From assembly GCA_040767965.1 (NCBI GenBank), contig JAXGNR010000012.1, positions 1 to 56,237 on the forward strand: DNA of 56,237 nucleotides, written 5' to 3'. The position numbers and the translations under genes were made by a program. Each line of letters opens with the position of its first letter. The first letter of the stretch is position 1. The DNA comes from Atribacterota bacterium (lineage in GTDB: Bacteria > Atribacterota > Phoenicimicrobiia > Phoenicimicrobiales > Stramentimicrobiaceae). Shown here piece by piece: positions 8,881 through 20,733 of the stretch. The notes under the pieces were generated by a model. That model did not search any database, had not been told where the DNA came from, and saw nothing but the letters and a program-made list of their open reading frames with translations.

Positions 8881-9350
8881 AATGGATTTCAAGGACAGCC
8901 TTTTTGCTTGCTATTGCCCTGGTCTTCCAAATGGGAGGTTTTCCGCAATTTATAACAGGTCCATTAGTAAATACCGTGCTTTATCTGGCAGCGGTGATAG
9001 TTGGATGGCAGGGTGGGATTTTGATTGGTATTTTTACGCCGATTATTGCTGCTATGCGGGGGATTTTACCTCCTCCGCTAGCCCCTTTGATTCCTTTTAT
9101 TGCCCTGGGCAATGCAATACTGGTAATTTTATTTTTTTGGCTGAAATCAAAAAACAATATTCTGGCTATTATTATCGCCTCTTCAGCTAAATTTTTGATT
9201 TTAGTAAGTGCAGTAAAAATATTGGTTCAGGTTCCGCCTGCAATTGCTCAGATGATGAGTTTCCCTCAGTTAATAACTGCATTGGTAGGGGGATTTATTG
9301 CCCTTTTAATTGTGAAGATTTTTAAAAAGACTGATATTGAATTTAAATAA
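8862..9350 (+). CDS. ECF transporter S component (substrate unknown)
   Basis: 162-aa hydrophobic protein; ITGPLVNTVL, PFIALGN and PQLITAL motifs typical of S components. Confidence 0.75.
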   Translation: MQHTNIKWISRTAFLLAIALVFQMGGFPQFITGPLVNTVLYLAAVIVGWQGGILIGIFTPIIAAMRGILPPPLAPLIPFIALGNAILVILFFWLKSKNNILAIIIASSAKFLILVSAVKILVQVPPAIAQMMSFPQLITALVGGFIALLIVKIFKKTDIEFK

Positions 9351-9369
9351 AAAGTTGATTAGATAGAGA

Positions 9370-9413
9370 TAGTTTTATCAGGATGTCTATAAAATGACAT
9401 CCTGATAAAACTA
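9370..9413. terminator. Inverted repeat between convergent genes (likely bidirectional terminator)
   Basis: tagttttatcaggatgtc ... gacatcctgataaaacta, 18-bp perfect stem. Confidence 0.8.
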
Positions 9414-9426
9414 GTAGTCATAGTGA

Positions 9427-10170
9427 TTAATAATGTTTTACTTCTGCATGTTCCAGGTTTTCCCAAATTAACTCATTTCTATCCTGGAATTTCTTTACCA
9501 GCAATACAGACTTGTTTTCTTTTAATACTGTTTTTACCTTGCCTTTCAGGGATACCAATTCTTCATCTGAAAGTATTTGCCCATCTTCAGTACATGCTTT
9601 ATCTATTTCCCATTTCTCGCACAGATCTTTAATTTTGAATTTGCAGGGATTTTCTAAAATAAAATGGCTTCCACGGAACCTTCCGTCATTTCCGCTAAGC
9701 CGTAATCCAGTTCCCGCCAGAGCACCAATAACACCGTCTCCGGTTCCTCCATGTTCTGTTAAGTATATGGAAAGCTCTTCTGCCAGTTGGTAGGCATCCT
9801 GCTTGGATAATTTTTTTATTTTCGCTTTTCGGCCAAAATTGATAATTCTTTCGGGATATTTCACCTCATCCGGAAATACTACACACAAGCCAGGATCTGA
9901 TTCAGGTGCTGATTCTCTTTTTAAATAGGAAATAGACAGATCGATAATCCTTTCTATTTCCTTCCTTTGAGATATTTCCCCGGCAAAGCACATCACACTA
10001 TTGTGAGAGGTATAAGGGACTGACGGGTGAACGAATAGCTGGTGCCTGGTGATGCTGTCAGCTATCCCCCATCCGTTTTCAGTAATATTTTTCCTTATTT
10101 TCTCCAGTAGATGGCCGGTACCCGGCCAATCTTTCTGATCTGTATCATCAATTGCTAATAGATATCTCAT
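9427..10170 (-). CDS. TiaS (tRNA-Ile2 agmatinylcytidine synthetase) N-terminal-like protein lacking tRNA-binding domains; function unknown
   Basis: IDDTD..GT, RHQLFVHPSVPYTSHNS..C, SDPGLCV, GDGVIGALAG resemble TiaS catalytic-domain motifs; only 247 aa, no Zn ribbon. Confidence 0.6.
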   Translation of the reverse strand: MRYLLAIDDTDQKDWPGTGHLLEKIRKNITENGWGIADSITRHQLFVHPSVPYTSHNSVMCFAGEISQRKEIERIIDLSISYLKRESAPESDPGLCVVFPDEVKYPERIINFGRKAKIKKLSKQDAYQLAEELSIYLTEHGGTGDGVIGALAGTGLRLSGNDGRFRGSHFILENPCKFKIKDLCEKWEIDKACTEDGQILSDEELVSLKGKVKTVLKENKSVLLVKKFQDRNELIWENLEHAEVKHY

Positions 10171-10178
10171 CTGTTGAT

Positions 10179-11269
10179 TTATACATCCCCTTTTCTCAAG
10201 CGCATTCCTTCACCGCTTAATATCTTTTCTATATATTCATCTGTTAAATCCCATTCATAAAAGCTGGAATAAAAATATTTTACTTCTTCCTGCATACTGA
10301 TATCTTCAAACAAATCCGGATATAGCAGTTTGGCTACACATAAAATTGCTAGAGGTGTTTCCAGGGCATTAGTGGGATGACCCCACCGGGATACCCCATT
10401 GGGCATTTTATAAACTCTTTCATTTTTTACTGCCTGCAAATCAGCCCATTGTTCATTGGTAAGAATATATTTATCTACATTCTCTTCATTGACAATAATG
10501 ACTTCTGCATCCCAGAGTAATATTTGTTCTAAACTGGCAAAGTATTTATTTTCTAAAAACTTTAAATCTGTATCCAGGAAACATTGTGGGCTCCGGCAAT
10601 TTCCAGCCATTCAGCTGCCCGGGTACCCCTAGCGTCAGTCCTGGTTGCCTCGTTAACTGAATGATATACGGTAACTCTGTCTGAAAAAGGTATTTCCTTA
10701 ATTTTTTCCTGTACTCTTTCTATGCAATAATTATAATAATCAATATATTGTCTGGCTTCTTCAACCTCACCAAGGGCTTTGCCTATCATTTCCATAGAAA
10801 ACTGGTGCTCGGCAATAGATCCATAATCAATGACCAGATAGGGAATATCAAATTGCTCTATCTGGGCAACATAGGCTTCGCTAACCGCATTTTCTCCCTG
10901 GATAAACAGAATATCACAGTCGGCCCTGGCCAGCTCTTCAATGTTAATGACACTACTTTTACTGGGGACTAAGGCATCCTTAATATTTGGAAACATTTCT
11001 GTAAAGAGAACATCTCTTTTCAGTCCATCTACGATTGCCACAATGTCAGGTCCCCGGTTCAGTAAGGCAACAGCATGGCCGGAATAGGCAAATAGGCAAC
11101 CGATTCGCTCTATTTCTTCTGGATTAGGCACTTCTACTTCTCTATCAAAACAATCAATAACAATATTCTTTTCTGTAATTGCAGTCTCATCTGCTATAAT
11201 TGTTATGCTAAATGCAAATAATATACAAAAAATCATACTGAAAAAGATAATGAAATTTCTTTTAAACAT
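10179..11269 (-). CDS. Type II (Fe-siderophore/B12-class) ABC substrate-binding protein, split by one frameshift near 10576
   Basis: Signal peptide, DCFDREVEVP..IERI, INIEEL, SLEQILLWDAEVII, W..LQAVKNERVY; two overlapping ORFs are joined by restoring one C. Confidence 0.85.
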
Positions 11270-12092
11270 ATACTAAAGACTCCTTTTCTGAAATTTTTAT
11301 AGGGATGATATATTTCTGCTTTTTTAGATCATCCAAATCATAATCAATAATTTTGCATTCTATTTTAAATATTTTACTAATATTCTCTTTAGTCAACACC
11401 TCTCCAGGCCGTCCATAGATGGCAAATTTTTTTTCATTAAGCATGGCAGTAAAAGTTGTTAATCCATTATTCTCAAAATAAAAAGCATGATTCAGGTAAT
11501 GAGTTGCCAGAATAATAGATAAATTCTTTTTTTTGGCTAACTGCCTGGTTACCTCCAGAACAGTTAAACTGTTCTGGAAATCCAGATAAGTTGTGGGCTC
11601 ATCCATAATCATAATTTTTGATTGCTGAGCCAGTGCTCTGGCTATCATAACCAGCTGTCCTTCCCCACCGCTTAATTCAGTATATGGCCTGTGCATTAAA
11701 TGCTTTATACCTACAGTCTCAATGGCTTCATGAGAGGTTGAAACATCCTCTCTACCAGGAGACCCGAACATTCCAATATGGGAAGCTCTTCCCATTAGAA
11801 CAATTTCCTCAACTGTATATGGAAATGTTTTTTTATGTATTTGAGGGACATAAGCAATTGTTCGGGCAATTTCTCTTGCTTTTAGATAATTGATATTTTT
11901 CCCCTGTAATAATATTTCACCTTTTTTCAATGGGAAAATCCCCATAATGCAATCCAGGAGTGTTGTTTTTCCTGAACCATTAGGCCCTATCAGGCATATA
12001 ACTTCTCCGGCTTCCATCTGGAAATTAATATTTTCCAGAACATTGTGACGGCCATAACCAAAACCAGCTTCTTTTACTTCTAATAAAGACAT
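11262..12092 (-). CDS. ABC transporter ATPase, FecE/BtuD family
   Basis: GPNGSGKTT, LSGGE, MDEPTTYLD. Confidence 0.9.
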   Translation of the reverse strand: MSLLEVKEAGFGYGRHNVLENINFQMEAGEVICLIGPNGSGKTTLLDCIMGIFPLKKGEILLQGKNINYLKAREIARTIAYVPQIHKKTFPYTVEEIVLMGRASHIGMFGSPGREDVSTSHEAIETVGIKHLMHRPYTELSGGEGQLVMIARALAQQSKIMIMDEPTTYLDFQNSLTVLEVTRQLAKKKNLSIILATHYLNHAFYFENNGLTTFTAMLNEKKFAIYGRPGEVLTKENISKIFKIECKIIDYDLDDLKKQKYIIPIKISEKESLVYV

Positions 12093-12096
12093 CCTA

Positions 12097-13134
12097 CTAC
12101 CATCCCTTTCCCTTGGTCTTTTTTAAAAGATAGACAAAGAAGGGTCCGCCGATTAAGGCAGTAAGTATTCCCAGGGGTATTTCAGCCCCAATCAAAGTAC
12201 GACTTAAATTGTCCACCACAATCATAAAGAAAGCTCCCAGAAAAAAGCTGGCTGGAATAAGAATACGGTTATCATTACCGACCATCATCCGACCAATATG
12301 AGGCATAACTAAACCCACCCAGCCGATATTACCACTGACGCTAATCGCTCCAGCAGTAGCCAGCGAAGCACATAAAACCATAATAATTTTCGTCAGGATA
12401 TTATTAATGCCCAGTGCCTGGGCTTCTTTATCCCCCATTGACAGGACATTAATCTGCCAGCGCAGGGCAATTAATCCGAGAACACCAATAGAAATGGGTA
12501 TAATAGAAAAGTAGATATCTTGATACTGGGCAGTAGCCAGACTACCCATCAGCCAGAAGGTAATTGATGGTAATTTTTCAAAAGGGTCTGCTACAAATTT
12601 TGCAAAAGAAACCAGGGCAGAAAATATTGAAGACACAACCACACCACCTAACACCAGTGTAATTGTTGGAGTGGAATGGTAAATCTGTCCAATAAAAAAG
12701 CTCATTGCTACTGCTAACAAGGCAAAACCAAAGGCATAAAAATAAACCATATAATTCTGACCATATAGAATAATTGCCAGCACTGCACCAAAACTTGCTC
12801 CGGAGCTGACTCCCAAAATACCTGAACTTACCAAAGGATTCCGAAATAATCCCTGAAAGGCAGCCCCGCTAATAGCCAGGCTGCCTCCTACCATTGCACC
12901 CAGAATAGCCCTGGGCAATCTTATTTTCCAGACCACAGTGTTATAAATATTCGGAAAATCCTGATTAACCTGAGGATTAACAGTTACTCTGAATACAGCC
13001 ATGATGTCAGCCCAAGTCAAGGGATACCTGCCTATAAAAAGTGAGAAAAAAATCCCGATAAAAGGTAAAATGATAATTAATATCAGGAGAACACTATTCT
13101 TTTTTAATTTTAAAGCAGAAAAAATTTTTTGCAT
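12097..13134 (-). CDS. FecCD/BtuC-family ABC permease
   Basis: IRLPRAILGAMVGGSLAISGAAFQGLFRNPL, GNIGWVGLVMPH, EIPLGILTALIGGPFF. Confidence 0.92.
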   Translation of the reverse strand: MQKIFSALKLKKNSVLLILIIILPFIGIFFSLFIGRYPLTWADIMAVFRVTVNPQVNQDFPNIYNTVVWKIRLPRAILGAMVGGSLAISGAAFQGLFRNPLVSSGILGVSSGASFGAVLAIILYGQNYMVYFYAFGFALLAVAMSFFIGQIYHSTPTITLVLGGVVVSSIFSALVSFAKFVADPFEKLPSITFWLMGSLATAQYQDIYFSIIPISIGVLGLIALRWQINVLSMGDKEAQALGINNILTKIIMVLCASLATAGAISVSGNIGWVGLVMPHIGRMMVGNDNRILIPASFFLGAFFMIVVDNLSRTLIGAEIPLGILTALIGGPFFVYLLKKTKGKGW

Positions 13135-13166
13135 CTACATTCCGGTAATCATAATTTTGTTCAAAA

Positions 13167-13640
13167 TTATTTTATTGCCCCTAAGGCCATAAATTCCAAT
13201 ATCAGTTCTTCACCTAATTTTTCACCGCTTTTTGATTCTAATTCAGGAAAAATAATAATCTGGTAAGTCTTTAAAGATTCTATACCTTCTTTTATAATCA
13301 GGGTAATATTATTTCTCTTTTCTCTTTCAATCTGGTCATCAGCCATTTCAATTTCTACAGCTACTTCACTACCGCCTTCTTTGTTAATAACCTTGAAGCA
13401 TTGACTATTATTTTCACTGACTTCCATGTTAACTACATTCTTGCTGAAAGTGAATTCAATAACAATGTTTCTTTGTCCTTCATCATTTAATTCATCAGTC
13501 ATACGAAATGCTTCCAAAACCAGAGGATTCTTTCCACTGTCCTGTGCCATAGCAGAAATAGTTCCTAAGGTAAACACAACAACCAGAATAACAGCCAAAA
13601 TTAAATTTGATTTTTTTATACTCTGTAAATTTAAAAACAT
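13167..13640 (-). CDS. Secreted Ig-like (Big_5/SbsA-type) domain protein
   Basis: Signal peptide ending AMA; FTFSKNVVN...DDQI...KSGEKLG beta-rich pattern; GGAGG RBS before ATG 13640. Confidence 0.6.
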   Translation of the reverse strand: MFLNLQSIKKSNLILAVILVVVFTLGTISAMAQDSGKNPLVLEAFRMTDELNDEGQRNIVIEFTFSKNVVNMEVSENNSQCFKVINKEGGSEVAVEIEMADDQIEREKRNNITLIIKEGIESLKTYQIIIFPELESKSGEKLGEELILEFMALGAIK

Positions 13641-13670
13641 AAAAACCTCCAAATATTTTTTTGATTAAAA

Positions 13671-13702
13671 TAAAAAATCCTGTACTTTTCCCCGTACAGG
13701 AT
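13671..13702 (-). terminator. Riboswitch expression-platform intrinsic terminator
   Basis: ATCCTGTAC-ggggaaaa-GTACAGGAT followed by a U-tract, between the aptamer and the first gene. Confidence 0.8.
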
Positions 13703-13710
13703 ATAATTAT

Positions 13711-13803
13711 CTCTTCTTTCCAAACACGGGGGGCTCAGCAATTTCTCACTAAACCTGATGGTTAGCTTTCATGGAAAACCTTTAGAAAAACTAACTCGAA
13801 GAA
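13711..13803 (-). ncRNA. Moco/Wco riboswitch (Moco RNA motif), P3-lacking variant
   Basis: Minus strand CTTCGA-GTTAGTTTT-TCTAAA..CATGA-AAGCTAAC-CATC-AGGTTTAGTGA GAAA TTGCTGAGCC-CCCCGTGTTTGGAAAGAAGAG: GAAA tetraloop, receptor-like motif, conserved CCCGTRTTTGGAAAG, no P3. Confidence 0.85.
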
Positions 13804-13833
13804 AATTGTACAGTATTTAATTTAATAAAAGTT

Positions 13834-13862
13834 ATTATACACAATTAGTTATTTTAGTGCAA
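13834..13862 (-). promoter_or_regulatory. Sigma70 promoter for the riboswitch operon
   Basis: TTGCAC-17 bp-TATAAT about 30 nt upstream of the aptamer. Confidence 0.7.
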
Positions 13863-13904
13863 ATAGATGAACCGGATATAGCCTATATATCATCAGGCAA
13901 TCCA

Positions 13905-13949
13905 AATTAAAAAGAATAGATATATTCAATATATCTATTCTTTTTAATT
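13905..13949 (-). terminator. Hairpin after wtpA
   Basis: aattaaaaagaatagatata/tatatctattctttttaatt inverted repeat. Confidence 0.7.
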
Positions 13950-13962
13950 ATTCTATTTTTCC

Positions 13963-15054
13963 TTATTTTTCAATAACTATACTGGCTAATGATTGAGGAA
14001 GATTGTTTGAAAAATCCACAACTGGTGGATTTATGACTACCTGTCCGGTATTTTCCATTATTCTCTGGCCCTGGGGACTAAGAATGAATTCCATCAGTCT
14101 GATTGCCTCTTGTGGATTTGGGGCATTATTGGGAATTGTTATTCCGTAGATAATAGGTAAAATGTCATAATCCGGATTGACTGATAAAAACCTTTTAAAA
14201 GCAAGTTTGACTTTCATATTCGAGCATAATGCTTTAAATTCCTCAGAACCCAGATTTATCTCCGGTGGAAACTCCAGAAAATTAACCTCATGCTGCCGGG
14301 CAACACTTTTGTATTCAAAACCATAATCCAGATCACCTGACTGAATAGGAAAAAGTAATTTGATACTGGAATCCCGGATGGCAAGTCTCTCCGCTTCCAA
14401 AATTTCCGGAATTAGAATTGTGTAGCTGTCTTCATTTTTTTCCACCTTAATAGGATACGAGAATCTTCCAATTACATTATGCAGTAAATCTTTTTCCTGA
14501 TAAAAAATTTCTGCTAATTTTAAAGCCATCAATGACCTGTAGCCACAGGCATCAAATCGTGGATCTGAAATTCCAACTTTTACCTCTGGTCTGGAAAGAA
14601 TTTGATACCAATTATCGGTATTGATCTCATCATTGTATTTGCTTTGGGAAGTGTAAGCTAATCCCAGAATGTTTGTTCCAAACTGAATACACCAGCTGGC
14701 ATAAGGTTGCTGGCTTTCCGGAATCATTGTTTCGTACATCAGTTTTGGAATCAACGAATAGTCAGCTACTGCAACAATATCTGCAATAGGCTCTCCTGAA
14801 AAAGCTGGTAATTCGATTACATGCCGGATAACCTGAATACTGCCATGCCCTTCAACCAGGACATCAATCCCTGGATTTTCTGCCTCAAAGGCCTTTTCTA
14901 TAGCCCCAAAAGGAACTAACAAACTTCCGGCTGCCTGGATTTTCACAGATATCTTTTCCTGGTCCTGGCAAAAACCAGATAAAAATAGGCTGATTATCAG
15001 TATAATTAAGCAAGCTCCAAAGACTGTTTTCCTTAACAGTTTTATGGTCATCAT
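13963..15054 (-). CDS. wtpA: Tungstate/molybdate ABC substrate-binding protein, WtpA class
   Basis: AAGSLLVPF..E..F, EGHGSIQVIR, AVADY, SDPRFDACGYRS, FEYKSVA, IIYGITIP. Confidence 0.85.
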   Translation of the reverse strand: MMTIKLLRKTVFGACLIILIISLFLSGFCQDQEKISVKIQAAGSLLVPFGAIEKAFEAENPGIDVLVEGHGSIQVIRHVIELPAFSGEPIADIVAVADYSLIPKLMYETMIPESQQPYASWCIQFGTNILGLAYTSQSKYNDEINTDNWYQILSRPEVKVGISDPRFDACGYRSLMALKLAEIFYQEKDLLHNVIGRFSYPIKVEKNEDSYTILIPEILEAERLAIRDSSIKLLFPIQSGDLDYGFEYKSVARQHEVNFLEFPPEINLGSEEFKALCSNMKVKLAFKRFLSVNPDYDILPIIYGITIPNNAPNPQEAIRLMEFILSPQGQRIMENTGQVVINPPVVDFSNNLPQSLASIVIEK

Positions 15055-15102
15055 TCCTCTCCTGTTAAATAGAGAATTTTAAAAAGTTTTGGCTATTTGC
15101 CT

Positions 15103-16077
15103 TTAGGGAAAAATAACTTTAATTTCTTTTATTTGACCTACCTGCTCTTTCCCGGTTAAACCATCTCCTACCAACCTTAATGGCCAGGAATTTTCCGGTA
15201 AAGATTCTCCGTCTAGTTTATATGCCACAATGATATTATTCCTTCGGGCAATAGATGAGATTGGAAGTGTTGCACTAAATCCGTCTTCAGCAATAATTTC
15301 TACTTCATATCCGTCCTGGACCAATGAATCATTAAAGGCTTTTCCTTCATGAGGATTATCATCATCTACCCGTCCTACCAGTAGCCACAGGGGAATTCCT
15401 TCCCATTCTCTACCTTTATCATCAACATATCTGGTACCATGACAACCTTCGGCTGAACCAGATTCAAAAGTAGCCCGATCAATATTTTCATCCCGTGCAC
15501 CTTTCAACTGTAAAACCCAATCCTTAGGAGCAGGAACCAGCTCTATCTGTTCAACCCACTTACTCCACCAGTGACCGTCTGTTACCTGATTCTTCTCACT
15601 AAGAATAGCCAGTCTTAGGGGACCACCCAGCTCAAAGGTCATTGCTTCTCCATCAGTCATATAAGCCAGAATCATATGCAAATCACCATGGGGCACTTCA
15701 TTTAACGAAACAGGGTCATAGGTAATAAAATCATTTTCGGTTACTTGTTTATAACTGAAAGTCATGGCATAACCGTCTCTGGAAATGATTTTAACAGCTG
15801 TATCAGGGTTAATGCCTCCGACCATATCGCATATTTCCAGAACAGATACTCCTTTTAGTTCAAAAGGACCCTCAATAGCACCGGTGCTGCGCATTCTACC
15901 TCCCCAGCCTTCTAAAGCAGGTAAATCCATAATTTCCTCCAGAGTTAATGTTTTTACTGTATCACCGGATGTTATTTTCAGGGCAACATCTTCCTGAGCT
16001 GCCAAAACATTGCCTATTGTTAATGATAGCCCAAATATGACCAGAAAAATTATTGTTTTTAATTTATTAATCTTCAA
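15103..16077 (-). CDS. Secreted protein with two molybdopterin-binding (sulfite oxidase/MsrP-like) domains
   Basis: Duplicated pattern KGVSV..DGY..ILAY..DG..GPLRL..KWVEQI / WEGIPL..DGF..IVAY..DG..PLRLV..QIKEI; Sec-type signal peptide, no RR motif. Confidence 0.7.
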   Translation of the reverse strand: MKINKLKTIIFLVIFGLSLTIGNVLAAQEDVALKITSGDTVKTLTLEEIMDLPALEGWGGRMRSTGAIEGPFELKGVSVLEICDMVGGINPDTAVKIISRDGYAMTFSYKQVTENDFITYDPVSLNEVPHGDLHMILAYMTDGEAMTFELGGPLRLAILSEKNQVTDGHWWSKWVEQIELVPAPKDWVLQLKGARDENIDRATFESGSAEGCHGTRYVDDKGREWEGIPLWLLVGRVDDDNPHEGKAFNDSLVQDGYEVEIIAEDGFSATLPISSIARRNNIIVAYKLDGESLPENSWPLRLVGDGLTGKEQVGQIKEIKVIFP

Positions 16078-16161
16078 TTTATTTCCTCCTAGTTTTTTTA
16101 TATTTTAAAGATCGTGGTAATTTTTTCAGTTCAAATATAGATATAAATAATCCTCCTCTCT

Positions 16162-16965
16162 TTATATGTTTTCATTTCTCATGATTAAAATTCTTAATAT
16201 AATAAAGATAATAAGTGAAATCATTACTCCCAGGGCAGCTATAGGGCGGGCATAGAAAAGTCCAAAATTAAAGCGGTCAGATACCAAGACCGGCAATGTC
16301 TTTCCACTCTTCCCTAAAAAAGATACATTATAAGCAATGATCATTACTGCACCAAACTCACTTACACCTCTTCCCCACATAAGAATACAGCCGGAATAAA
16401 TGCTTTTTAAGGCTAAAGGAAGAGATATATACCAGAATACCTGCCAGTGTGAAGCGCCATAAGTATAGGCGGTTTCTTCCAGTTCAATATCTATTGACTT
16501 AAAACCTTCCTTAACTGAATCAATCAAAAAAGGAATACTTACAAACATCATTGCCAGGACAACTCCATAGAATGTCTGGAAAAATTCAATTCCGAAAAAA
16601 CTAAAAACTCTCCCCAGGAAATAATTACGGCCAAAAACAAACAAGAGAGCTATGCCGGCTGCAGAATGGGGAATAACAATGGGAATATCAATAACGGCTT
16701 CCAGTATCCCTTTACCAAAAAAATTGTGTCTGGCTAGCAGATAAGCCAATGGTATCCCCAGTAAAAATCCCAACATTGTTGCAAGCAGTGCTGCAATCAA
16801 TGTTAAACAGATAGAGTGATTCACTTCTGGATCTTTTACTGTATTACACAATACAGATAATGGAGTATAAAAAATTGTTTTTAATGGTGGAAGAAGTATA
16901 AACAGGATTGTCATGATACCAATTAAAATAAAGATTAGATAGAACAAATCAACATTTTTTCTCAT
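16162..16965 (-). CDS. wtpB: Tungstate/molybdate ABC permease (WtpB/ModB)
   Basis: PLAYLLAR..F.GK, IDIPIVIPHSAAGIAL, EETAYTYGAS, RGVSEFGA. Confidence 0.85.
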   Translation of the reverse strand: MRKNVDLFYLIFILIGIMTILFILLPPLKTIFYTPLSVLCNTVKDPEVNHSICLTLIAALLATMLGFLLGIPLAYLLARHNFFGKGILEAVIDIPIVIPHSAAGIALLFVFGRNYFLGRVFSFFGIEFFQTFYGVVLAMMFVSIPFLIDSVKEGFKSIDIELEETAYTYGASHWQVFWYISLPLALKSIYSGCILMWGRGVSEFGAVMIIAYNVSFLGKSGKTLPVLVSDRFNFGLFYARPIAALGVMISLIIFIILRILIMRNENI

Positions 16966-17040
16966 TTTAGCAAGTAACCCTTTATTCCTTTCTACACCAA
17001 CGAATATTTATACTTTCCATTTATTTGCTATTCACCAGGA

Positions 17041-17097
17041 AATAAAAAAACAGCACTTTTTGACATTAGTAACAACAAGTTACATCAAAAAGTACTG
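17041..17097 (-). terminator. Riboswitch expression-platform terminator
   Basis: CAGTACTTTTTGA...TCAAAAAGTGCTG followed by TTTTTTT. Confidence 0.75.
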
Positions 17098-17119
17098 CCC
17101 TATATTTAAATTTCATCTT

Positions 17120-17233
17120 TCTCTCCTTTCCAAATACGGGAGGTTTAAACATTTCTATTTAAACCCTTAAGACTTTTGAGGTCTTGCGTTTACCGGTCAT
17201 AGAAAACCCTTAGGCCAGGTAAATCGAAGAGAC
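17120..17233 (-). ncRNA. Moco riboswitch (Moco RNA motif), P3-containing variant
   Basis: Minus strand CTCTTCGA-TTTACCTGG-CCTAAG..TATGA-CCGGTAAA-cgc-AAGAC ctcaaaa GTCTT (P3)-GGTTTAAATA GAAA TGTTTAAACC-TCCCGTATTTGGAAAGGAGAG. Confidence 0.9.
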
Positions 17234-17284
17234 TTATTTATAAATTATAAAAATTCTATTTCCCTGTTAAAAGTAATTTAATTT

Positions 17285-17621: not shown

Positions 17622-18431
17622 TTAAATACGCAATAGAAGATTCCCAAAAAAAAGAAAGAGCAATAATACCCCTACTTCATTTAGTTCATTAACCGCTCCT
17701 ATAATGTCACCACAAATACCCTGTATCTTTGCAAAAGAATAAAAGATTAACAGATAAGTAATAATTGCTGAAAATACCAGAAAGTAAAATGTGAAATATG
17801 ATAATAGATAAAAGCTGCATATCACAGCAAAGAAAGTAGCTATCAATAACTCTTTCCCTCCCAAATATATAGTGAACATGCGCGATAAAGAGTTATCAGC
17901 AGAGGCAGGTTTCCCTGAATAGCCAGCCAGCACCATTGACCATCTTCCAATAACCGGAGCCAATAGCAATGCTTCTGATTTATAAGCAGCAGGTAAATTG
18001 TTTATTAACAGCAGTTTTAAAATAATCAACAAGATTAAGCCAATGGCTCCCTTTGCCCCTATAGCCCCATCTTTCATTATACGGATAATCTCCTGCTGGT
18101 TTTTGCCACCGGAGAATCCATCTACCATATCAGCAAAACCCTCCAGGTGCAGTCCTCCGCTTAAAAAGATCCAGATTGCAAGAATAATTCCATTGACTAA
18201 CAAAATATCAAAGTGAGTAAATCCAAGTAAATAATTTACACCCACCAGAATAAAACCAATAAAAATACCAACTATCGGAAAAAATACACTGGATTTTGAT
18301 AAATCCTCTTTTATATAATCCTGTTCTTGTTTTGGCTGCTCCTTATTAGGAGTGGAAAATAAAAAGCTAACAGGCAAGACTGTTAAAAAAGAAAAGGCCA
18401 GAAGAAACCTTCTACACAAGTTTTTCATCAT
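17622..18431 (-). CDS. cobS: Adenosylcobinamide-GDP ribazoletransferase (cobalamin synthase)
   Basis: GGLHLEGFADMVDG, IMKD..IGAKG, GICGDIIGA. Confidence 0.92.
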   Translation of the reverse strand: MMKNLCRRFLLAFSFLTVLPVSFLFSTPNKEQPKQEQDYIKEDLSKSSVFFPIVGIFIGFILVGVNYLLGFTHFDILLVNGIILAIWIFLSGGLHLEGFADMVDGFSGGKNQQEIIRIMKDGAIGAKGAIGLILLIILKLLLINNLPAAYKSEALLLAPVIGRWSMVLAGYSGKPASADNSLSRMFTIYLGGKELLIATFFAVICSFYLLSYFTFYFLVFSAIITYLLIFYSFAKIQGICGDIIGAVNELNEVGVLLLFLFFGNLLLRI

Positions 18432-18987
18432 TATTCCCTTTAATTAAAATCGGAATACCGGCCACCATCAGATATACTTTAGCAGAATTGGCTGCAATAA
18501 ATTGATTAGCTTTACCTAAGGTATCACGGAAAAAACGCCCCAGCGGATTTACAGGAACTAATCCCAACCCTACTTCATTTGATACAATAATTAATGTAGC
18601 TGAACTTTTTAATGATTGGTTGATAATTCCTTCTACCTGCATCATAATGTTTTCATTTATTTCCTGGTTTTCTGAACCTTCCTGATAGTTGGTCATAAGA
18701 TTAGAGACCAAAAGAGTGAGGCAATCAAGTAATATCACATCTACCTGTTGACTAATTTTCTTAATAATTGGGAGAATATTATAGGGTTCCTCATATGTTT
18801 GCCAATCGGTAGGGCGGTGAGCGCGATGCTTGTTTATCCTCTCATGCATCTCTTTATCTAAAGCCTGTGCAGTGGCAATAAAGGCAACCTTTCCACCATT
18901 GTCGCGAGCTATTTTTTCTGCAAAAGAGCTTTTCCCACTGCGAACTCCTCCGGTAATCAGAATTATATTTTTATTTGAATAAATCAT
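18412..18987 (-). CDS. cobU: Adenosylcobinamide kinase/guanylyltransferase
   Basis: GGVRSGKSSFAE, EMHERI..HR..R, LLDCLTL, VSNEVGLG..P, FRDTLG. Confidence 0.95.
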   Translation of the reverse strand: MIYSNKNIILITGGVRSGKSSFAEKIARDNGGKVAFIATAQALDKEMHERINKHRAHRPTDWQTYEEPYNILPIIKKISQQVDVILLDCLTLLVSNLMTNYQEGSENQEINENIMMQVEGIINQSLKSSATLIIVSNEVGLGLVPVNPLGRFFRDTLGKANQFIAANSAKVYLMVAGIPILIKGNNDEKLV

Positions 18988-19028
18988 TCTTTTTCCTGCT
19001 GATAATACAAATAATAGTTAAGTAACTG

Positions 19029-20090
19029 CTATTCTTTTAAATCATCAAATGTGGCCATTTTGTTAAGTAGCTTAAATCCTGTTTCAATAAAATTCATACC
19101 ATAAACAGCCCCGGTGCCTTCACCTAAATGCATTTTTAAATCAAAAATCGGTCTTTTCTGCAGATAAGATAAAGCAACAAGATGTCCCTTTTCCTTTGAA
19201 CAATGACTGGCAAACAGATAATCTTTTACTATGGGAACAAGGTGCACTGCCAGTAAGGCGCAGGCTCCTGATATTAAACCATCCATTACCACAGGCACTC
19301 TTCTGGCTGCCGCAGCCAGTATGCAACCGACCAGTCCTCCTATCTCAAATCCACCTACTTTGGCCAGAACATCCATTGGATCTTTGGGGTTTGGCTGATT
19401 TACAGTAATTGCTTTCTTGATTATAGCGGTTTTATGCTCAACTTCTTCAGGAGCAAGTCCGGTACCCATGTCTACTGTATCTTCAATTTTTGCTCCAGTT
19501 AAGAGACTGATAATAGCACTGCTGGCAGTGGTATTACCTATACCCATTTCACCTAATCCAATCAGGTTAATTTCCTGACAGGCATAGCTTTCTTCAAAGA
19601 CCTCATAACCGGTTAGAATAGATTTCTCAGCCATTTCAGGAGTCATAGCAGGACCGTTAACCATATTAAAAGTGCCATGAGCAATTTTCCTTTTATTTAA
19701 TCCTTTTAATTCTTTGATGTCTGCAAATTCCCCCTTAACACCAATATCTGTAATGGCTACCTCTATACCGAAATGTTCAGTTAAGATATTTATGGCAGCA
19801 CCGCCATTTAAAAAATTTAAAACCATCTGGCGGGTAATTTCAGCAGGATAAGCACTGATTTTTTCAACTGTTACTCCATGATCGGCTGCCATTAAAAAAA
19901 CTACTTTTCTCTTTAAAGGTGGATTTACTGTTCCATAAACTCCGGCTGCCAGGGCAATTATTTTCTCTAATTCGCCCAGGCTCTTGGCAGGTTTGGTTAA
20001 ATTATCAAATTTTTTTATAGTTATCTCTTCTAAATCTTTATTAACTGGCATAATTTTTTGAATTATTTTTTCAATTTTCTTATTTCTCAA
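19029..20090 (-). CDS. cobT: Nicotinate-nucleotide-DMB phosphoribosyltransferase
   Basis: LTKPAKSLG, AADHGV, GEMGIGNTT, LGEGTGA. Confidence 0.95.
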   Translation of the reverse strand: MRNKKIEKIIQKIMPVNKDLEEITIKKFDNLTKPAKSLGELEKIIALAAGVYGTVNPPLKRKVVFLMAADHGVTVEKISAYPAEITRQMVLNFLNGGAAINILTEHFGIEVAITDIGVKGEFADIKELKGLNKRKIAHGTFNMVNGPAMTPEMAEKSILTGYEVFEESYACQEINLIGLGEMGIGNTTASSAIISLLTGAKIEDTVDMGTGLAPEEVEHKTAIIKKAITVNQPNPKDPMDVLAKVGGFEIGGLVGCILAAAARRVPVVMDGLISGACALLAVHLVPIVKDYLFASHCSKEKGHLVALSYLQKRPIFDLKMHLGEGTGAVYGMNFIETGFKLLNKMATFDDLKE

Positions 20091-20733
20091 TTGAGCCAGC
20101 CTTTTCTTTTTGAAATTTTAGATGGGCTACATCATTTACCGAACTAACATAAAAACCACTTTCCTTTTCAAATTTCAATATGTTTAAAGCAGTAGATTCC
20201 TGTCTGATGTGCCATATATTTTTAATTGGGATTTCAAGTGCTAAGGCAATAATCATTCTTGTTACTCCGCCATGACAAACAATAATTATTGTTTTTTCTT
20301 TGTTTTCTTCATAATGATCCGCAATTACTTTATCTAAAGCTGATTTAACTCTTTTTTGTAAATCAAAAACACTTTCTCCGCCTGAGAGTGGTGAATCAGG
20401 TTGATTCCACCATCCGGGTGAAATACTTTCTCCTATTTTCTGATTATATTCTTCAAGCTTTAATCCTTCCCATACTCCAAAATGAATTTCCCTAAAACCT
20501 GGTTCTATGGATAATGGTGTTTCTCGATTCTGTAACACAATTTTTGCTGTATTGACAGCTCTTTTCAAATCACTACTATAAGCAGCATCAATTTTCTCCC
20601 CACTTAAACGCTTGCCTAACTGTTCAGCCTGCCAGATACCTTTTTCAGTTAATTCAACATCCTGGTGGCCTGAGAATCTTCTTTCAACATTACTTTGTGT
20701 TTCACCATGCCTTATTACCAAAAATTTCAACAT
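20080..20733 (-). CDS. cobC: Alpha-ribazole phosphatase (histidine phosphatase)
   Basis: RHGET, SSDLKRA, REIHFGVWEG, CHGG; operon context. Confidence 0.85.
   Translation of the reverse strand: MLKFLVIRHGETQSNVERRFSGHQDVELTEKGIWQAEQLGKRLSGEKIDAAYSSDLKRAVNTAKIVLQNRETPLSIEPGFREIHFGVWEGLKLEEYNQKIGESISPGWWNQPDSPLSGGESVFDLQKRVKSALDKVIADHYEENKEKTIIIVCHGGVTRMIIALALEIPIKNIWHIRQESTALNILKFEKESGFYVSSVNDVAHLKFQKEKAGSIEK

Follow-up and report, generated by a model that had tools for sequence, protein, structure and literature searches.

A tungsten-cofactor-type riboswitch, a MolBC-A-type importer and a TiaS-like protein in one Atribacterota operon: a candidate tungsten-supply module

What would a bacterium gain by placing an enzyme with a kinase fold directly behind an importer, and by putting both under an RNA of the cofactor-sensing Moco family? 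The question is raised by one operon of an Atribacterota bacterium (assembly GCA_040767965.1, 2.33 Mb in 30 contigs), at positions 9427-13862 on the minus strand of contig JAXGNR010000012.1, whose 56,237 nucleotides (nt) are called the window throughout. An initial annotation, made from the letters alone, had described there a tightly spaced, co-oriented set consisting of a promoter, a riboswitch, a terminator and genes for a secreted immunoglobulin-like (Ig-like) protein, a FecCD-type importer and an enzyme resembling TiaS. All of these elements were found.

The supply of tungsten and molybdenum (W/Mo) cofactors is thought to be understood: the Mod, Tup and Wtp pumps bring in the oxyanions, and MoaA-E, MogA/MoaB, MoeA and MobA then take over. 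A recent tungsten-specific maturation pathway names, in the excerpted text of its description, only MoeA1, MobB, MobA and FdhD (PMC13197769). Our literature search, which did not reach subscription journals or supplements, found no publication on the present gene set, in keeping with the annotation's remark that no characterised pathway is known to have it.

We argue that the assignment of this operon to W/Mo metabolism is well supported. Beyond that, we lean, if modestly, towards reading it as a supply module for tungsten (possibly also molybdenum), in which the riboswitch would turn the genes off when cofactor abounds, the importer would take up a tungsten species, and the TCKD-fold enzyme would spend ATP. 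The TiaS-like family has a rare kinase fold and counts 6841 or more uncharacterised proteins (relatives at E<=1e-3 when 5.8 billion clusters were searched). Three observations connect it with W/Mo transporters: a cofactor-sensing riboswitch, a gene order kept across several phyla and a near-perfect co-occurrence with one importer subfamily. This points to an undescribed ATP-dependent step in the supply of tungsten. Tungsten enzymes (AOR, W-FDH) are important in the anaerobic turnover of carbon and in the biocatalytic reduction of CO2.

The riboswitch and the genes behind it

From leader to end, the operon consists of the following features (aa, amino acids; ABC, ATP-binding cassette; ORF, open reading frame; MFE, minimum free energy).

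13834..13863, minus strand: sigma-70-like promoter, TTTGCA-18-TATAAT, a consensus match at 10 of 12 positions
13697..13813, minus strand: Moco/Tuco riboswitch aptamer of the P3-lacking class (RF01055, 62.5 bits, E 1.1e-12, model positions 1-135)
13667..13702, minus strand: intrinsic-terminator-like hairpin (13702..13677; 9 bp, 8-nt loop) with T-run, the expression platform, from sequence and fold
13167..13640, minus strand: small secreted protein homologous to Big_5 Ig-like surface proteins, 157 aa from ATG 13640 (161 aa from TTG 13652)
12097..13134, minus strand: MolB-like type II ABC permease of the FecCD family, 345 aa (Pfam FecCD, E 5.6e-88)
11262..12092, minus strand: MolC-like ABC ATPase, 276 aa (Pfam ABC_tran, E 1.2e-33)
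10179..11269, minus strand: MolA-like substrate-binding protein, Peripla_BP_2, frameshifted (ORFs 11269..10562, 235 aa, and 10610..10179, 143 aa)
9427..10170, minus strand: stand-alone TiaS-TCKD-like protein, a putative ATP-using enzyme, 247 aa (PF22641, 26.3 bits; cut-off 27)
9370..9413 (about), no strand: 18-bp hairpin between convergent genes (MFE fold of 9340-9430, -27.1 kcal/mol)

Against an RF01055 gathering score of 36 bits, the 62.5 bits of the aptamer bear out the call of a Moco-motif RNA, and the covariance-model alignment of 13813..13697 deletes the P3 columns, which places the RNA in the P3-lacking ("Tuco") class. Folded alone, the aptamer gives P1, P2, P4 and P5, and its alignment shows a GNRA (GAAA) tetraloop and the conserved CCUCCC...GGAAAG core. 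The orthologous RNA in one of two Atribacterota relatives (loci L007 and L008; identity of their TiaS-like proteins to the window's, 80% and 70%) lies at L007:6341-6457 and has a P2-P4 linker of 4 nt, against 22 nt in P3-bearing RNAs; RNAalifold on five RNAs of the Atribacterota genome itself finds compensatory changes in 16 of 32 pairs. The full-length match, the four helices P1, P2, P4 and P5, the GAAA tetraloop and the P3-lacking class are all shared with the riboswitch as excerpted from Regulski et al. 2008 (PMC2408646), a source in which P3-less Moco-family RNAs are tied to users of the tungsten cofactor.

The terminator hairpin lies directly 3' of the aptamer, its 5' arm overlapping the final 6 nt of the Rfam match, and a near-identical hairpin stands behind the genome's other P3-less RNA. 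The promoter is to be taken as a consensus match only, promoter-like sites in this AT-rich region numbering 31 where shuffles lead one to expect 30.6. GGAGG is found 5 nt upstream of the ATG at 13640.

What else do such RNAs control in this genome? It holds six RF01055 matches, one of them under the cut-off, and the window has two Moco-family RNAs, the P3-less one just described and a P3-bearing one at 17241..17107 (78.4 bits). Besides these and one tRNA, no Rfam family reached its gathering score in the window, and no RF00174 cobalamin riboswitch was found there. The P3-bearing RNA heads an operon at 13963-17241 on the minus strand, in which wtpB (so named, like wtpA, by NCBIfam) is followed by a secreted protein of 324 aa and by wtpA; the secreted protein matches Oxidored_molyb (PF00174) in part, over two stretches, at E 1.2e-14. 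That operon contains no ABC ATPase ORF, and the rest of the genome was not searched for wtpC. Elsewhere, one RF01055 RNA precedes a tupABC-like trio and the other P3-less RNA precedes moeA, moeA-like, moaA, moaC and mog-like genes (names in both cases from the first residues only), and two further gene sets lie behind RF01055 RNAs. According to the excerpts of Regulski et al., the genes regulated encode Mod-, Tup- or Wtp-like transporters, biosynthesis functions and enzymes that use the cofactor (PMC2408646); those of the present operon differ from these. The top-scoring Moco RNA of the genome (80.9 bits) is at C9:84107-84258 (+), before ORFs of 281 and 485 aa.

Behind the leader, five minus-strand ORFs follow one another with intergenic gaps of -8 to +32 nt. 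At ~13905-13940, behind wtpA, an AT-rich hairpin and its T-run set the operon apart from the one upstream, and the 18-bp hairpin at 9370-9413 is, judging by its predicted fold, probably a two-way terminator that ends it. Contigs from RNA libraries overlap parts of 9980-10901, which is no proof of transcription, as RNA libraries can contain DNA; nor do the uncovered stretches carry any information.

The first protein was called Ig-like in the initial annotation, and the name rests on its relatives. The window protein itself has no Pfam match even at E<=1, Big_5 (PF13205) included, whereas Big_5 is above its cut-off of 23.6 bits in 6 of 6 scanned homologues (25.7-56.3 bits), members of a cluster in 20 loci to which tblastn ties the window protein at E 1e-12 to 8e-21. 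Its N-terminus looks, by eye, like a signal peptide.

An importer of the MolBC-A kind

The initial annotation had also argued that what would pass for an "iron ABC transporter" belongs to W/Mo metabolism, and the solved relatives of the importer side with it: they are MolB and MolA, not BtuC, HmuU or FhuB. For the permease, the best of them is HI1471/MolB (2nq2; E 5.4e-68, 232.8 bits, residues 20-343), ahead of HmuU (171 bits), FhuB (147) and BtuC (136), so that the lead over HmuU is ~60 bits. The ATPase finds its best NCBIfam matches among ATPases of type II importers (heme, corrinoid, FecE), each below its own cut-off.

The binding protein had been listed as a single gene. Its Peripla_BP_2 domain is indeed present; the gene, however, is split into two ORFs, lacking 1 nt near 10576/10577 in comparison with the two Atribacterota relatives (alignment column 693), both of which (L007 and L008) have one ORF of 364-372 aa. 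We compared four public sequencing runs over 9300-13950, and contigs at least 99% alike from two of them, one an RNA library and one DNA and from different studies, carry an extra G behind 10576 that restores the frame. Because these contigs keep the frame intact, the sequence comparison identifies the break as an assembly error or a strain variant and not as a feature of the system. The intact L007 protein matches MolA HI_1472 (3psa/3psh) at E 1.4e-24, residues 36-339 against 3-320; its top match in the PDB is an unnamed binding protein, 4ovk (E 3.5e-30), and BtuF is not among its 12 PDB matches.

With the H. influenzae MolBC-A system (HI1470/HI1471/HI1472) the importer thus shares an architecture of FecCD-type permease, ATPase and class III binding protein, and both belong to Mo/W metabolism. 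According to the excerpts available, MolBC-A is a type II importer of molybdate whose binding protein, MolA, takes both molybdate and tungstate (PMC4031551, PMC4245157), at an affinity for molybdate that is called low (PMC4031551); the H. influenzae system is in this sense a low-affinity one for both anions. Because of that description, the cargo of MolBC-A-type importers is again in question. Unlike the MolBC-A that has been described, the importer in the window stands under a P3-less Moco riboswitch, is preceded by a secreted Ig-like protein, and is of a type almost always followed by the gene for a TiaS-like enzyme. Set beside BtuCD-F, with 136 bits for BtuC and 233 for MolB, it does not qualify as a cobalamin-uptake system. 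That the importer might serve iron, heme or B12 was considered and ruled out by MolB and MolA as closest relatives, by the low BtuC and HmuU scores and by the lack of a cobalamin riboswitch.

The genome encodes a second set of this kind at ~73.7-78.3 kb of contig C9: a MolB-like permease (40% identical to that of the window), an ATPase (40%) and a binding-protein-like ORF, behind a Moco-like RNA that falls below the cut-off (33.8 against 36 bits). There is no TiaS-like gene in that place, and the genome has only the single one.

The TiaS-like protein and its partners

Is the last gene of the operon really related to TiaS, as the initial annotation had it? In its fold, yes; in its identity, no. 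A family profile aligns DDTD and T18 with their counterparts in the TiaS structures of the PDB, which it finds at E ~2e-8. The AlphaFold2 model (pLDDT 90.9) superimposes on TiaS 3amt_A with Z 20.2 and a root-mean-square deviation of 2.2 over 154 aa, and on 3u02 with Z 15.0, the next unrelated chain reaching Z 7.9; Foldseek, too, retrieves TiaS (E 2e-9). This is a cytoplasmic protein with a true TCKD fold. A likeness to HPPK, the pterin pyrophosphokinase (Foldseek E ~1e-2; Z 6.2), is one of many among ferredoxin-like folds and was not counted as evidence.

The relatives are nearly all ~245-260 aa long and mostly named "hypothetical." In 20 of 20 diverse members D8, D9, T10, D11 and T18 are invariant, and I7, G17, G19 and the motifs RHQL, PYTSHNS, DPG and HGGxGxGxxGALAGxGL are invariant or nearly so. 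The TiaS work of 2011 is said to have found Thr18 to be the autophosphorylated residue of TiaS. With archaeal TiaS, the tRNA(Ile2) 2-agmatinylcytidine synthetase (3amt, 3amu, 5xob, 4rvz; 3u02), the window protein shares the TCKD fold of the N-terminal ~155 residues, along with the DDTD motif, Thr18 and the glycine-rich G-x-IGALA-x-G loop. The differences are no less plain: 247 aa against ~420, a different C-terminal domain of ~85 aa without a PDB match, a bacterial origin, and a genomic context of W/Mo transport in place of translation.

The window protein is not a TiaS, since its score with the NCBIfam equivalog NF040849 is far under the cut-off (32.5 bits against 600, profile positions 1-154 of 422 only) and its C-terminal domain is without a match. 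Nor is it a methanogenesis marker protein 11 (TIGR03280, 47 bits against 255.8), and none of the tRNA-binding FLD, OB and zinc-ribbon domains is found in its 247 aa. The ESM Atlas places it solely among clusters like itself, labelled "hypothetical" or "DNA-binding," in which 13-17% of the members carry TiaS_TCKD. The C-terminal domain (residues 163-247) is beta-rich and, modelled alone, has a pLDDT of 85.8; its model has no match at Z>=5 among 48161 chains. A molbindin/TOBE-type oxyanion domain was sought in it, with a best structural Z of 2.5 and nothing in Pfam at E<=0.01.

With whom does this protein travel? We took 301 genomes of completeness >=80, all from the phylum containing locus L016, and scored TiaS-like genes at profile E<=1e-20, the window permease at E<=1e-95 and AFOR_N as a marker of AOR. 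TiaS-like genes are present in 21 of the 301, a close MolB-like permease in 22, AFOR_N in 183. The first two occur together in 20 genomes—that is, in 20 of the 22 permease carriers—usually ~3 kb apart on one contig, a coupling of enzyme and importer in line with the initial annotation. The two genomes with the permease only have its weakest matches (52% and 47% identity), and in the sole genome with only the TiaS-like gene that gene is split across contig ends. A link to tungsten enzymes, which the annotation had thought worth looking for, is also there: AFOR_N is found in 20 of 21 TiaS-like carriers and in 163 of the 280 other genomes (odds ratio 14, Fisher p 3.6e-4, with genome kinship ignored), and the Atribacterota genome has 8 AFOR_N matches, at least six of which lie in frames that stay open for 619-656 aa and count as full-length AOR-type ORFs.

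A wider survey of one genome per species gave at least 425 confirmed TiaS-like loci, of which 80 from many phyla, many with a short upstream flank, were kept for analysis. Culturable carriers include Sporomusa ovata, Clostridium magnum, Neobacillus niacini and Geomonas species. With our own covariance model, built from the five above-cut-off RF01055 RNAs of the Atribacterota genome, 50 riboswitch matches were counted in these loci at E<=0.1; in 48 of the 50 the P2-P4 linker has 4-10 nt and P3 is lacking, and in two it has 22 nt. A co-directional match lies upstream of the TiaS-like gene in 27 of the 80 loci. In 11 of these (Geobacter, Geomonas and relatives) the riboswitch is 87-326 nt before a lone TiaS-like gene, and in 13 it heads an operon in the order (Big_5), permease, ATPase, binding protein, TiaS-like gene. 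Locus L023 has riboswitch and TiaS-like gene parted by opposite-strand ORFs, and the match in L039 is weak (E 0.017). The linkage of TiaS-like homologues to Moco RNAs that the initial annotation had proposed to check is seen in 27 loci; across phyla, the gene keeps company with W/Mo transporters.

These counts bear on one rival. Could the TiaS-like protein be a kinase or modifier of RNA or protein that sits near W/Mo genes for the sake of regulation, next to an ordinary iron, heme or corrinoid importer? TiaS, as excerpted, is a kinase of dual RNA and protein specificity that acts on tRNA and on itself (PMC11938285), automatic database names for the family are TiaS or DNA-binding protein, and genes that resemble, by eye, those for the cobalamin lower ligand lie 4 kb upstream. 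To this we oppose the missing FLD, OB and zinc-ribbon domains, the 32.5 bits where a TiaS would need 600, a window free of cobalamin riboswitches, BtuC and HmuU scores far below that of MolB, and the 11 loci in which the gene directly follows a P3-less Moco riboswitch. We give this rival very little credence. The four ORFs in question, at 17622-20733 on the minus strand of the window, resemble cobS, cobU, cobT and cobC.

Some of the 80 loci have more than one copy of these parts. P3-less riboswitches stand in tandem, three before TupA-like transporter genes at L050:11928-12430 (-) and two before a giant gene with S-layer-homology (SLH) and Big_5 domains at L057:2325-2593 (+), and several matches lie in L011:294-1115 and 9443-9914 (+). 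Three Syntrophomonadaceae loci (L028:8350-10762, L033:6184-8449 and L046:8453-10762) have three tandem TiaS-like paralogues behind importer genes, 31-45% identical to the window protein.

What is carried, and what the ATP may be for

Transporter parts were counted in the 80 loci by tblastn with the window proteins and by clustering of crude ORF calls, if they lay on the same strand and within 7 kb of the TiaS-like gene; in loci of high G+C, antisense ORFs sometimes replaced true genes, and the last of these counts is therefore an upper bound.

MolBC-A-type parts only: 36 of 80 loci
Parts of the energy-coupling-factor (ECF) type only: 13 of 80 loci
Both MolBC-A-type and ECF-type parts: 3 of 80 loci
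Neither transporter type: 28 of 80 loci (upper bound)

In all, MolBC-A-type parts accompany the TiaS-like gene in 39 loci and ECF-type parts in 16. Pfam scans of cluster representatives from the ECF loci show a fused EcfA-A', CbiQ/EcfT and a PF09819 S component, the make-up of dedicated (group I) ECF importers (CbiMNQO/NikMNQO); the window, by contrast, has the type II ABC form. Other neighbours scanned with Pfam include Big_5 proteins, a TonB-dependent receptor, an AA_kinase that we read, from its sequence, as MoSto-like, SBP_bac_11 (TupA/ModA-like), MFS_MOT1, MoaE and giant SLH + Big_5 surface proteins, and MoeA is among the neighbours as well. The TonB-dependent receptor occurs in 9 of the 13 ECF-only loci against 2 of the 36 MolBC-A-only loci.

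How, then, might the module work? On the supply reading, plentiful tungsten cofactor would make the aptamer favour termination and switch the operon off. Under cofactor shortage, an extracellular tungsten species would be caught by the Ig-like surface protein together with the MolA-like binding protein and brought in by a MolB2C2-like pump; the simplest candidates for this cargo are tungstate and molybdate themselves, or a plain derivative such as a thio-anion or small chelate. We infer, from gene linkage only, that the cargo would then be handed to the TiaS-like enzyme, which would use ATP either to act on it or to deliver it to cofactor synthesis; the reaction might be a phosphoryl or adenylyl transfer of the sort that TiaS performs on cytidine. 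The annotation had suggested an intact pterin or a metallophore complex as cargo; we treat this as one possibility among several, because the closest characterised relative carries a bare oxyanion.

Several observations weigh against this reading in its simplest form, and it is only fair to gather them. The OFF direction of the riboswitch is assumed, and in a truncated fold 13813-13807 pair with 13697-13691, an alternative that in this model could act as an antiterminator extending P1. No riboswitch is seen in 53 of the 80 loci; seven of these riboswitch-negative loci were rescanned with Rfam itself and gave 0 matches, so that in those seven the absence is not an artefact of our own covariance model. 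The binding-protein gene is broken in this assembly. The permease is only ~39% identical to HI1471 (counted by eye on the alignment), whereas its orthologues linked to the TiaS-like gene are 53-68% identical to it across phyla, and it does not follow that the substrate of MolB is shared. A TonB receptor accompanies the module in Gram-negative loci, and Big_5 + SLH surface proteins do so in Gram-positive ones; TonB receptors and surface proteins more commonly serve a cargo that is scarce or bulky. The ordinary importers of tungstate, Tup and Wtp, are not known to need such an enzyme. Because Tup-like and Wtp pumps are already in the genome, and because of the associations with the enzyme, with ECF parts, with TonB receptors and with surface proteins, the evidence argues that the cargo is not plain tungstate—and for that reason two other cargoes stay alive, a pterin and a metallophore.

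An importer encoded together with a cytoplasmic ATP-using enzyme or kinase is the usual layout of vitamin salvage. Might the importer take up a molybdopterin-type pterin, be it dephosphorylated cofactor, precursor or breakdown product, which the TiaS-like kinase would trap or reactivate? TCKD is a kinase domain, importer and enzyme are almost always together, and 16 of the 80 loci combine this enzyme with ECF importers of the vitamin type, whose S component matches PF09819. Secreted proteins with a partial Oxidored_molyb (pterin-cofactor-binding) domain occur in the L075 operon and in the neighbouring wtp operon, TonB receptors and Ig-like surface proteins fit a scarce organic cargo, and the carriers are, going by record titles, nearly all anaerobes, in whose habitats a labile pterin could persist. 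The low affinity reported for MolA and molybdate, as excerpted (PMC4031551), speaks on the same side. Against all this, the nearest relatives with solved structures, permease as well as binding protein, work on an oxyanion, the neighbours are often metal-related (MOT1, TupA-like, MoSto-like), the genome seems to make its own molybdopterin (the putative moaA/moaC/moeA-like ORFs behind a riboswitch), and PDB sequence searches with the two secreted Oxidored_molyb proteins (the 324-aa protein of the window and that of L075) gave no match. We consider pterin salvage possible and well short of probable. The broader proposal—that the TiaS-like protein acts on small molecules as a kinase (or adenylyl/phosphoryl transferase), trapping or reactivating an imported molybdopterin-type pterin, and that the importers travelling with it are uptake systems for cofactor or precursor that cofactor switches off by way of the P3-less riboswitch—strikes us as rather unlikely. 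If it were true, the MolBC-A-like and ECF importers would be the first bacterial uptake systems for W/Mo cofactor or its precursors.

The metallophore route has W or Mo arriving on a secreted chelator, from which the TiaS-like enzyme would free the metal, or which it would modify, with ATP. The usual cargo of type II ABC importers is indeed chelates, as the excerpts of PMC4245157 and general knowledge agree, the TonB-dependent receptors counted above (9 of 13 ECF-only and 2 of 36 MolBC-A-only loci) are consistent with it, and one locus has in its operon a DUF364/DUF4213 protein, "putative heavy-metal chelation." Yet the same excerpts describe the MolBC pathway as narrow and fit for a small substrate (PMC4245157), and chelator-biosynthesis genes were neither seen in the window operon nor recurrent in the 80 loci (by crude ORF clustering). 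We hold this route to be improbable, and we stay with the supply reading.

Three kinds of locus have further proteins beside these genes. Giant SLH proteins lie between riboswitch and importer genes at L016:92-5653, L031:2313-6077 and L054:2021-6046, the L031 protein with SLH + Big_5 and that of L016 with SLH, RCC1 repeats, fn3 and a Shr-like heme-protein-interacting domain; their role may be that of cargo receptors at the cell surface. In L075:3419-13400, one riboswitch-headed operon holds a secreted Oxidored_molyb protein, a DUF364/DUF4213 protein, MolBC-A-type genes, a TiaS-like gene, a Phosphodiest/Metalloenzyme protein and ECF-type genes. And in L030 (Sporomusa ovata) and L035 a membrane protein of 670-690 aa with CCG and 4Fe-4S domains, heterodisulfide-reductase-like, adjoins the TiaS-like gene, its own gene lying, in L035, directly behind a P3-less riboswitch.

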